From assembly GCA_963665235.2 (NCBI GenBank), contig CAXXLX010000001.1, positions 1,856,001 through 1,920,000 of the forward strand: DNA of 64,000 nt, in the 5' to 3' direction. How positions within the stretch are numbered: the stretch's first letter is position 1; each line of letters starts with the position of its first letter. Below, piece after piece: positions 35,155-37,652 of the stretch. The notes under the pieces are model-generated. The model ran no database searches. It was not told where the DNA came from and was given only the letters and a program-made list of their open reading frames with translations. The position numbers were made by a program, and so were the translations under genes. This stretch comes from Candidatus Poribacteria bacterium. GTDB lineage: Bacteria; Poribacteria; WGA-4E; WGA-3G.

Positions 35155-35586
35155 CTATTCATCGCCATTCGAGCGTAACAGGTGTATTCCGATAGCACCA
35201 TTTAGCAATGGAAGTATAGCATCAAAGATAATCCATATCGTCGATTGGGTTTCGGGGCCAATGGCTGTAAAGGTTTCAGCGTTGAGCAAAATGAACCAAT
35301 TCCAGAAGAAAATTATAGCGGCAAACATGAAACCGTAGAATAACGTGTTCGCTGCGATAAACTCTTGAACACTGGAGCTCTCGTTGACTTTTTTCATGCG
35401 AATGTAGCTGAATATTATCCCCAGTACTATTGAAATAGCAGAAAGTGGGTTGATGTAACCCCAAATAGAGCTATACAGATTAGCGTCGGTAGAAGTGTGG
35501 TATATCGGTTCAATGACTGTGTGAATTGCGACTATTGCTGCGATGGCGATGTGAACAACGCCTATGACTTTCTTGAGGCCTTCCAT
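35155..35586 (-). CDS. Small 4-TM hypothetical membrane protein
   Basis: AAGGAG RBS before ATG 35586; four hydrophobic segments. Confidence 0.75.
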   Translation of the reverse strand: MEGLKKVIGVVHIAIAAIVAIHTVIEPIYHTSTDANLYSSIWGYINPLSAISIVLGIIFSYIRMKKVNESSSVQEFIAANTLFYGFMFAAIIFFWNWFILLNAETFTAIGPETQSTIWIIFDAILPLLNGAIGIHLLRSNGDE

Positions 35587-35621
35587 GATATTCTCCTTCC
35601 CTAATTGGGTTTGTAACGTAT

Positions 35622-35699
35622 ATTTCGTGATAGCACCCAACGCCTAAAGGCGACCGTGTGAAAACTTTCACGGAGCACTATCCCTGCCTACAACGAAAT
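35622..35699 (-). promoter_or_regulatory. Structured 5' leader (candidate cis-regulatory RNA)
   Basis: Nested stems AUUUCGU/ACGAAAU and GAUAGUGCU/GGUGCUAUC enclose two hairpins, downstream of the promoter at 35717-35745. Confidence 0.45.
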
Positions 35700-35716
35700 T
35701 TCCGGACATTTTCTTA

Positions 35717-35745
35717 ATTTTAGCAAAAAGGCGATTAAATGTCAA
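35717..35745 (-). promoter_or_regulatory. Sigma70-type promoter
   Basis: TTGACA-N17-TAAAAT with TG extension on the minus strand. Confidence 0.7.
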
Positions 35746-35806
35746 ATGCAAAAATTAAACCACCATGAAAATTTTTTGACTTTTTACGGAAAATTTATAC
35801 TTTTAT

Positions 35807-36357
35807 CAAGTCCCCCGCTACAAAACCCCCGTGCTTTAGCTGGGGGATGTAGTAGCGGCGCATGAGTTGAAAATTTCATTTGACTTTCTGTCGAAAATAT
35901 GGTATAAGATATACAGCTGCTGGTAGAGAATTAACGACTTTAGCAACCTTGCTATTGTTCTCTACCACCCACGTTAATGGGCAGAGCAGTTGCAGCGAAC
36001 CACAGACACTGCCAGCGGTATAAACTCTAAATATAGACCGGAATTCCCTGTAAACAAATATAGGACTAGCTGTCCTGCGAAGTGCCCAAATACGTGAGCG
36101 CTACTTAGCTGCCTGATAGTCCCCTGGAGGATACAGCTATCTGAGTGCACCGCACTAAAAAACTTGTCCTGATTTTTCCGCTAAACGGAAATTTTGTATT
36201 GTAGGGCAGGGCATTGTCCTACTTGAGTAGAACGTGTTAGACTTGTTTTGTAAGTCCTTTTTGGACAACAACCTACAAGCGTCGTTTGTTGATGCCACAA
36301 TCTACCCAGAGAAGCATTGGGCTCTTTCTAAGAATCCCCCTTGCTTTAGCATGTCAA
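35807..36357 (+). mobile_element. ORF-less IS200/IS605-type element with an internal promoter and a structured ~440-nt interior
   Basis: Left end TTAT|CAAGTCCCCCGCTACAAAACCCCCGTGCTTTAGCTGGGGGATGTAGTAGCGG. Right end AAGAATCCCCCTTGCTTTAGCATGTCAA (hairpin partly deleted). Promoter TTGACT-N17-TATAAG at 35880-35908. Confidence 0.6.
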
Positions 36358-36455
36358 TGTTGATTGCAAGTAGGCGTGGTCAAGAGGGTTTCCACCCACT
36401 GCCGCAATACCACAAGTTGGCTAAAACCCTCTAAAAAATATAAGGAGATTTAAGT

Positions 36456-37652
36456 ATGAAAATAAGAGGCGTTACAACATTCGCGTTTGTAGTGGCAGTT
36501 GTTTTGGCTCTGGGGCTTTCCGGTTGCGAGAGGGCTGACGATGGCATCATTGACCTCAACAACGTCACAGAAGTTTTAGAAAATAACAAAGTGGAAGAAA
36601 TTAACATCGGCATTATCGTATCTCAATCAGGGAAAGATGCCGCACCCTATGGGTGGCCAATGCTACACGGTTTTCATTTGGCACGAGAAGAGATTAACAA
36701 GGCACGAATCGGCAATGCAAGACTCAAGTTCCAGGTTGTAGACGACGAGAGCTCTGCAGCAGGCGCGAAGGCAGCTGTCCAAACATTGGTTGAAGCCGGT
36801 GTTCCTGTCATTGCCGGAATTGCTATCTCAACTTACCTCAAAGAGGCTTTTCCAGTTGCACAAGACGCGGGAGTAGTCGCTTTCAGTCCTGTCTCCTCCG
36901 CTGCTGGTCTAAGCAAAGAAATTGGAGATTTCGTCTTCCGTGCTGCTATCGCTACAAATATAGTCATGCCGAGTGGTGTGATGACGACTCAGAGCAAACT
37001 TGGCTATACAAAAGCGGCAGCGATATATGATGAGATTGATGCCTATTCCACAAGCAGCAACGAGGAGATAAGCAAAGCACTTGAAGCAAACGGGGTTGAG
37101 ATAATTGCTACGGAAACCTTTAGCACCGGCGACACCGATTTTTCCGAGCAATTAACCAAGATAAAGGATATGGCACCTGAGGCTGTCTTCATTTCTGCGC
37201 TGGCATCAGAGATACCTGAGATTATCAAACAGGGACGCGCGCTTGGAATTCCCGATACTGTTCACTTTATTGTGCCCGATTTAACCCAAAGCGAAATACA
37301 GCAAGCGGGTGATGCCGCCGAAGGAGCAGTAGCTTTTACGGGGTGGTCCAGTTTTTCTGACACACCCGGAAATCAGGATTTCATCGAGAATTATCAGATG
37401 AAATACAAAAGAGCACCGTTACCCTGGGCAGCACAGTCTTATGCAGCCCTGCACATTCTCGCTGACGCAATTAAGAACGCAGAGAAAAATCCAGATGGAA
37501 TGAGAGATGCAGCCGGAATTCGAGATGCACTCGCGCAAACTCAGGATTTTCCTACGATTTTAGGGGACTTCTCTTTTGATGCCGATGGCGAAGCTATATA
37601 CGACTCGACTGTACTTATCGTTAAGGATGGAATGCTTCAACTCTTTGAGTAA
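36456..37652 (+). CDS. Branched-chain amino acid-type (LivJ/K family) ABC substrate-binding lipoprotein
   Basis: Lipobox LSGC, LAREEIN, DTDFSEQLTKI, AAQSYAAL and GDFSFDADG. Confidence 0.9.
   Translation: MKIRGVTTFAFVVAVVLALGLSGCERADDGIIDLNNVTEVLENNKVEEINIGIIVSQSGKDAAPYGWPMLHGFHLAREEINKARIGNARLKFQVVDDESSAAGAKAAVQTLVEAGVPVIAGIAISTYLKEAFPVAQDAGVVAFSPVSSAAGLSKEIGDFVFRAAIATNIVMPSGVMTTQSKLGYTKAAAIYDEIDAYSTSSNEEISKALEANGVEIIATETFSTGDTDFSEQLTKIKDMAPEAVFISALASEIPEIIKQGRALGIPDTVHFIVPDLTQSEIQQAGDAAEGAVAFTGWSSFSDTPGNQDFIENYQMKYKRAPLPWAAQSYAALHILADAIKNAEKNPDGMRDAAGIRDALAQTQDFPTILGDFSFDADGEAIYDSTVLIVKDGMLQLFE

Follow-up and report, generated by a model that had tools for sequence, protein, structure and literature searches.

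A protein-free IS200/IS605-type element with a TnpB omega-RNA-like 3' domain in a Candidatus Poribacteria genome

What is the protein-free element at positions 35808-36357 of the window (the whole stretch of 64,000 nt of Candidatus Poribacteria DNA analysed here), and does its predicted RNA belong with TnpB or with something else? A preliminary description of this DNA had offered two answers, a stand-alone and unusually long omega-RNA-like gene acting in trans, or an unrelated large noncoding RNA carried as cargo. The element is intergenic, between two divergent genes, i.e., a 161-aa ORF on the minus strand without any Pfam match and, on the plus strand, a gene for a periplasmic binding protein (Peripla_BP_6; 36456-37652). 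As argued below, it is an omega-RNA-bearing PATE, a kind of element already in print (Meers 2023; Gomes-Filho 2015), and in our judgement it is likely that such an element acts via TnpB and TnpA in trans; this copy itself most likely no longer moves and has a guide RNA that is weakened or dead.

The element lies directly 3' of the target pentanucleotide TTATC (35803-35807, plus strand), which, by analogy with IS608 and ISDra2, we take to be also the TAM for TnpB. TTATC precedes the left end in every copy among the matches listed and is nearly invariant in 30 aligned relatives. The left end itself (35808-35865, plus strand) is a presumed recognition structure for TnpA, formed by the top strand. 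Its outer stem pairs CCGCTAC (35815-21) with GTAGTAGCGG (35849-58) and its inner stem pairs CCCCC (35826-30) with GGGGG (35842-46). The nested hairpin noticed earlier after TTAT is thus present, and both of its stems covary in the relatives (alignment columns 21-26/85-90 and 31-34/70-74). Such a left subterminal hairpin, 3' of a conserved motif and with no inverted terminal repeats, is a feature of PATEs derived from IS200/IS605.

The window's own genome contains about 35-40 copies of the left end; searched with 621 nt spanning the element and its surroundings, it yielded 42 matches. The interior is covered at just one other place, a sister copy (G000:C1:490753-491331) with 84% identity. A third copy (C1:1298524-1298882) matches the element at the left end and over its final ~150 nt, and the remaining matches are confined to the opening ~105 nt, with left end and promoter, to the final ~56 nt, or to both. 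The downstream DNA was inspected for 35 mapped left-end copies. Intact TnpB ORFs of 400/401 aa, in tnpB-only elements, follow nine of these left ends, shortened forms of the 400-aa ORF follow three, and tnpA followed by tnpB was found behind two; the others lead to different TnpB types or to several separate families, ~350-550 bp long, that lack an ORF. Pfam OrfB_IS605 and Cas12f1-like_TNB both match the 400-aa protein, and the RuvC motifs D, E, D and the zinc-finger cysteines are legible in the TnpB sequence. The 137-aa protein of the tnpA+tnpB elements is a Y1 transposase (Pfam Y1_Tnp, E 2.7e-37), i.e., a cognate Y1 transposase is present elsewhere in the genome on two elements with a matching left end. 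With a profile built from these proteins, 34 TnpB-like ORFs with a length of 250 aa or more were found in this genome.

Other protein-free families were observed in the same genome. One has ~10 copies of ~450 bp (L005, L003 and L004; G000:C1:546342-546828, C1:2603622-2604085, C1:4312575-4313032 and ~7 more); it agrees with the element in the left end, the three-way-junction layout of the leader and the omega-type 3' domain, and differs from it in the middle. At least three additional small families lacking ORFs, E07, E31 and that of the third copy mentioned above, are present as well.

No credible ORF had been seen in the element, and none was found: the longest ORF overlapping it has 66 aa. 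When the 34 TnpB-like ORFs were compared with 14 short elements by tblastn (413 rows at E up to 10), this copy had no TnpB similarity among the best 40 rows, which reach E 0.71; the sole significant match among these 40 (2e-8) was to E07, another PATE family. Together with the left-end copies and the siblings bearing TnpA and TnpB, these results confirm that the element is a protein-free one of the IS200/IS605 type. They also bear on the idea that the interior is a remnant of a decayed tnpB ORF, left by internal deletion, in which no RNA function would exist beyond the omega region. Internal deletion is a common origin of PATEs, and in TnpB elements the counterpart of the 3' domain does extend into the sequence that codes for the C-terminus. 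However, the tblastn comparison left this copy unmatched within the rows just given, and the DNA of the spacer (see below) is unlike that of any TnpB locus compared. We therefore regard a tnpB remnant as a highly improbable explanation; alignment of the interior to decayed tnpA or tnpB coding sequence, which the preliminary description had named as the outcome that would speak against its reading, was checked and not found.

The promoter described earlier stands as claimed. It is of sigma-70 type, with TTGACT, a spacing of 17 nt with TG at -15/-14, and TATAAG (35880-35908, plus strand). TTGA of the -35 box and TA...T of the -10 box are conserved at 90% or more in the 30 related elements, in which the form is TTGAC-17-TATAAT. 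The -10 box reads TATAAG in this copy as opposed to TATAAT in the sister copy. A scanner for consensus promoters did not list the site at 35880-35908, which is explained by the -10 box ending in G.

The predicted RNA of ~440 nt that would start here had been viewed as one unusually long omega-RNA. This view was not sustained, as only ~155-183 nt are omega-like; the first ~97 nt are a leader of tnpB type and ~160 nt are a private spacer. Judged from sequence comparison, the predicted RNA is a mosaic of three parts, the leader, the private spacer and the omega domain.

The leader (35914-36012, plus strand) is predicted, from homology and covariation, to form a three-way junction followed by a hairpin. 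The junction comprises P1 (GCTGC 35916-20 with GCAGT 35986-90), P2 (GGTAGAGAA 35922-30 with TTCTCTACC 35958-66) and P3 (CCCA 35968-71 with TGGG 35978-81), and the hairpin pairs GCAG (35992-95) with CTGC (36009-12). This module is 76-83% identical in protein-free elements of three other genera, and helices 1, 2 and 4 covary in the alignment of 30 relatives. Among the stems proposed previously, TGGTAGAGAA/TTCTCTACCA, a perfect 10-nt inverted repeat, was upheld, since the homologous helix covaries in relatives. When 30 TnpB loci taken from five other genomes were compared with the family model, it extended from the left end through the leader, to position 183-207, in three of them, and in the two of these three that were inspected the leader module is the 5'UTR immediately ahead of the start codon of tnpB. 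Visual inspection and folding suggest a junction of the same layout in the co-resident 400-aa TnpB element.

As an observation in its own right, tnpB mRNAs appear to start with a conserved three-way-junction leader abutting the start codon (L212:2600-2830, minus strand; L207:2620-2850, minus strand; G000 L010:1500-1700). No description of such a tnpB leader was found in the portions of the literature consulted.

The spacer (36013-36174, plus strand) is private to this copy and its sister. Genome searches found it twice among 176 genomes of the phylum, both times in the window's own genome. It had no match elsewhere in that genome or among ~229 compared loci, and no DNA similarity to any TnpB locus there; a 20-mer scan of metagenomes gave a single match, a chance one in GC-rich coding DNA. 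The possibility that this spacer is a functional structured RNA cargo unrelated to TnpB was considered. It is the internal part best conserved between the two copies in terms of substitutions (154 of 164 aligned positions), and the whole RNA folds somewhat better than shuffled sequences (z = -3.2 on the plus strand). Nevertheless, the reverse strand is nearly as foldable (z = -2.4), both values are modest, and folding therefore does not tell the strands apart. The restriction to two copies among the 176 genomes and the 32 extra nt in the sister copy's spacer also speak against a cargo, and the 120 predicted consensus pairs show, between the two copies, only two compensatory and six one-sided changes, with 112 unchanged and none broken. 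These pair changes are too few to decide whether the spacer is structured.

Searches with known RNA families pointed the same way. The Rfam check called for earlier was carried out and gave no family match at gathering scores in the whole 64-kb window, and, at E up to 10 over 35400-36800, gave just psRNA14, snoR101 and WT1-AS_7 (E 0.26-1.8), which were taken as chance. The spacer also had no match to R1, the covariance model of the M family treated below. An RNA cargo in the spacer is thus considered very unlikely, and the suggestion of an unrelated large noncoding RNA carried by the element is unsupported, given the absence of an Rfam match, the negative result with R1, and the occurrence of only two copies with almost no covariation signal.

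Separately, a group I intron (IStron) and HEARO, the omega-RNA of IscB, were ruled out as identities of the element, there being no Rfam match at gathering scores. An omega-RNA of IscB/IsrB type was likewise tested for and not found.

The evidence is different for the 3' part. The last 155-183 nt of the element (36175/36203-36357) align to the 3' termini of TnpB elements from four genomes, namely this one, G082, G125 and G036, and the search for copies and for tnpB loci sharing the 3' part, which had been recommended at the outset, thus found both. In the TnpB elements the homologous DNA overlaps the C-terminus of TnpB, just after the RuvC-III motif. The region overlapping the 3' end of tnpB is where omega-RNAs (also called reRNA or sotRNA) are encoded. 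In these alignments the homologue of the TnpB omega-RNA scaffold (36175-36357, plus strand) consists of a hairpin at 36175-36191, stem 1, stem 2 and the right end (36330-36357), and it reaches the element boundary, as expected of an omega-RNA scaffold. The proposal that the 3' part is such a scaffold is therefore supported by TnpB-element 3' ends of four genomes.

The omega-domain alignment contained 13 sequences, with five protein-free (PATE) rows and eight TnpB-linked 3' ends from four genomes. Stem 1, which in this copy pairs AGGGCAG (36203-09) with TTGTCCT (36214-20), is kept through three consecutive double changes, with AGGGCA/TGTCCT in the protein-free elements and AGGTTG/CAACCT in the TnpB elements. 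Overall, eight of the 24 consensus pairs change on both sides with pairing kept. These changes are split along the five PATE and eight TnpB rows, and hence represent few independent events. The hairpin TTTCCG/CGGAAA at 36175-36191, another stem put forward previously, is real; with its T-run it resembles a terminator and it precedes most of the omega domain, and the TnpB-linked sequences have a hairpin at the equivalent position. Unlike this stem and the 10-nt inverted repeat, neither CTACTTGAGTAG nor GACTTG/TAAGTC is conserved among the homologous omega-RNA regions, which support a different pairing.

The right end, ...AAGAATCCCCCTTGCTTTAGC-ATGTCAA, stops at 36357, and the element closes with ...AAGAATCCCCCTTGCTTTAGCATGTCAA. 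It had been overlooked that the right-end hairpin is incomplete. Nine nucleotides that make up its 3' arm are gone from this copy, with the 5' arm and loop present, whereas the hairpin is complete in sister copies and in TnpB elements. This hairpin is presumed to be the substrate of TnpA and the last scaffold stem next to the guide. As the right subterminal hairpin of a PATE is not intact here, this copy is a PATE by descent that probably no longer serves as a transposition substrate.

Comparison with the sister copy places this damage in context. Aligned with each other, the predicted RNAs of the two copies agree at 394 of 440 positions, the alignment having 50 gap columns. Compared over 35808-36357 and G000:C1:490753-491345, the modules of the two copies diverge unequally: identity is 96.8% in the left-end hairpin, 68% in the promoter region, 77% in the leader, 93.9% in the spacer and 91.8% in the omega domain. 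The promoter and leader, at 68-77%, thus stand apart from the left-end hairpin, spacer and omega domain, at 92-97%, and this mosaic divergence suggests module exchange between elements. Considering the missing 9 nt together with TATAAG, this copy is probably immobile and decaying, and its present activity is doubtful.

The same lesions could be taken further, in that the element would be an inert fossil that neither moves nor gives a usable guide RNA, and whose promoter, if it fires at all, would have read-through into the Peripla_BP_6 gene as its sole effect. The deletion in the right-end hairpin and the degenerate -10 box fit this, as does a subfamily of only two copies. The Peripla_BP_6 gene lies downstream on the same strand, with no terminator-like site between 36357 and its start. 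On the other hand, both lesions are absent from the sister copy, and the element is not uniformly decayed, with the spacer and omega domain at 92-94% identity compared with 68-77% for the promoter and leader. This alternative makes the same claim of identity as the explanation preferred here and differs from it only on present activity; in its full form it appears unlikely to us.

The preferred explanation, an omega-RNA-bearing PATE served in trans, would work as follows. Transcription from the left-end promoter would run through the omega-RNA scaffold and past the right end, so that the 3' end of the RNA would be a guide copied from the flank. TnpB from one of the nine intact sibling elements would bind the element RNA in trans, and TnpB with the guide would cut chromosomes that carry an empty site (TTATC plus guide), and repair would then restore the element by copying. 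The autonomous copies would supply the TnpA that moves such elements. In this copy, the loss of the 3' arm of the right-end hairpin and of the last T of the -10 box would have left the element fixed in place and the guide RNA weakened or dead. The action in trans that had been proposed is plausible, since intact TnpB (nine proteins of 400/401 aa) and TnpA are present on elements with the same left end. In the parts of their report consulted, Meers et al. (10.1101/2023.03.14.532601) state that PATEs often encode omega-RNAs and that TnpB of other elements must act in trans, and it was they who proposed the trans TnpB scheme for PATEs. A transcribed PATE-derived RNA in Halobacterium is described in the corresponding portions of Gomes-Filho et al. 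2015 (PMC4615843).

If the transcript passes the right end, the would-be 16-nt guide is given, by its position, by the flanking DNA at 36358-36373 (plus strand). No further exact match to this guide exists in the genome, as would be expected under the proposed scheme. Metagenomes scanned for the empty site with the 29 nt that follow the element on its right yielded no matches. Contigs from four public runs were also compared over 35300-36900. In each of three runs one contig joins 35760 to 36358 or 36361, with 597-600 nt skipped and ~60 other letters between the two sides; the right edge coincides with the predicted element end, and the left edge is 35760 rather than 35807. The sides of these joints measure only 35-45 nt and the calls were made at 85% likeness, so little weight is given to the joints; they hint, weakly, at an allele without the element whose right edge is the predicted right end. 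Just upstream, the 48 nt at 35753-35800 look like an incomplete duplicate of the promoter segment from a different left end (TTGACT-17-TATACT), lacking the hairpin. In view of this remnant the site may be nested, i.e., the insertion may have taken place at a TTATC in or beside an older remnant.

In other Poribacteria genomes there is a family of protein-free IS605-type elements of ~530-630 bp, referred to as the M family and present at up to 10 copies in a single genome (L023:167-698, minus strand; L059:1230-1768, plus strand; L044:1477-2019, minus strand; and 27 more in alignment A1). Each of its elements has its own TTGAC-17-TATAAT promoter and a predicted RNA of ~420 nt. With the G014 element as query, matches were obtained in 24 of the 112 genomes of the family, including the window's own genome, where only the leader matched. 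A profile found 50 full-length M copies among 190 loci, all uninterrupted from the left to the right end and ~530-630 bp long; 46 of these sequences are distinct and 32 differ mutually by more than 5%. A scan of genome contigs with a 17-base pattern gave at least 118 stretches, and the family model recognises 14 of 80 loci among the matches listed, all 14 of them from records titled Poribacteria, the other 66 being chance matches; six additional matching loci carried no title.

Thirty M sequences were aligned; L046 and L072, in which the match to the model begins at positions 77 and 53, respectively, were for this reason excluded. The predicted M RNA has 70 pairs in 15 helices, which are 95.9% paired compared with 72.9% for shuffles and 37-45% for slid partners. 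Fifty-seven of the 70 pairs change on both sides, and the observed covariation score was reached by none of 500 shuffles. Invariant motifs, namely AAGTATCGGT, CCGTAG and ATG.CCCGC.CC, lie between the helices. G-U pairs are frequent on the plus strand (e.g., 29/30 at one pair), which indicates that the M RNA is on that strand. A reading of the M family as IsrB/IscB-type was rejected on the strand of these G-U pairs and for want of a HEARO match. Rfam searches on eight related loci gave only mir-15 (E 0.06) and HgcC on the 3' end of one element from another genome (E 0.16).

None of 30 TnpB loci of five genomes contains the core of the M elements (~250 nt, model positions ~208-484). The same five genomes contain 21 M-type right ends, which belong to 18 full-length protein-free copies, one copy split by an insertion, one right-end fragment and one unrelated sequence, and no TnpB-like ORF occurs within 1.5 kb of any of the 21. 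As to the window's own genome, a unit of ~200 bp at G000:C1:3459690-3459897 bears a promoter and an M-type right end (…GGGAGGTGTCAA), the sole such right end found there by pattern.

Is the window element then a member of the M family? When the M family was compared with it by nhmmer, only the left end, promoter and leader aligned. The core model R1, run with filters off against the window and four loci (76,951 nt), gave eight matches of E 0.54-9.5, none of them in 35808-36357 or in the sister copy. Membership was therefore ruled out, and the window element has only the left end, promoter and leader in common with the M family. A broader picture, which we put forward tentatively as an unlikely but distinct possibility, would be a Poribacteria radiation of promoter-driven, RNA-only IS605 transposons, with the window element as a decayed side branch. 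The M core would then be no ordinary TnpB omega-RNA and could be a new large RNA on IS605 ends, either a scaffold for another protein or self-acting.

By itself the window locus changes little, being one more omega-RNA-bearing PATE, and a damaged one. Its value is that it displays the build of such elements, from the left end and promoter through the tnpB 5' leader and the spacer to the omega scaffold, with modules that diverge unequally between copies, and that it led to the better conserved protein-free M family in related genomes. The M family is the more interesting lead, and if its core proves to be without a TnpB-linked counterpart, as it is among the loci compared, it would be a candidate for a new class of mobile structured RNA and a test case for guide-RNA-only 'hyperparasites' of TnpB.

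Among known systems, the omega-RNA PATEs related to ISGst1/ISGst5 in Geobacillus stearothermophilus are close counterparts. According to the portions of the source consulted (10.1101/2023.03.14.532601), they likewise have IS200/IS605 ends, no protein gene and an omega-RNA scaffold at the right end, and are likewise served by TnpA and TnpB from other elements of the same genome. Compared with that description, which is the basis of the Geobacillus comparison, the window element adds its own promoter, a 5' leader of tnpB type and a private spacer of 160 nt, and this copy has a shortened right-end hairpin. With the TnpB omega-RNA, reRNA or sotRNA of IS1341-type tnpB genes, including HgcC (RF00062), as far as these are covered in the sections of PMC4615843 used here, it shares the right-end position, the homology that overlaps the TnpB C-terminus, and conserved stems. 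The differences are that the window element is unlinked to tnpB, has an extra hairpin in stem 2 and has an incomplete last hairpin; HgcC itself had no match in 35400-36800 even at E up to 10. IStrons, in which IS605 or IS607 is combined with a group I intron, also yield a structured RNA of a few hundred nucleotides, and ORF-less versions exist, as reported in the parts of Zedaveinyte et al. (10.1101/2023.11.20.567912) consulted. Unlike IStrons, the window element has no group I intron match in Rfam (E up to 10), its predicted RNA starts at an internal promoter rather than at the left-end boundary, and it is intergenic instead of lying within a gene. The departures of this element from a textbook PATE are thus the retention of a promoter and a tnpB leader, the private spacer and the broken right end.
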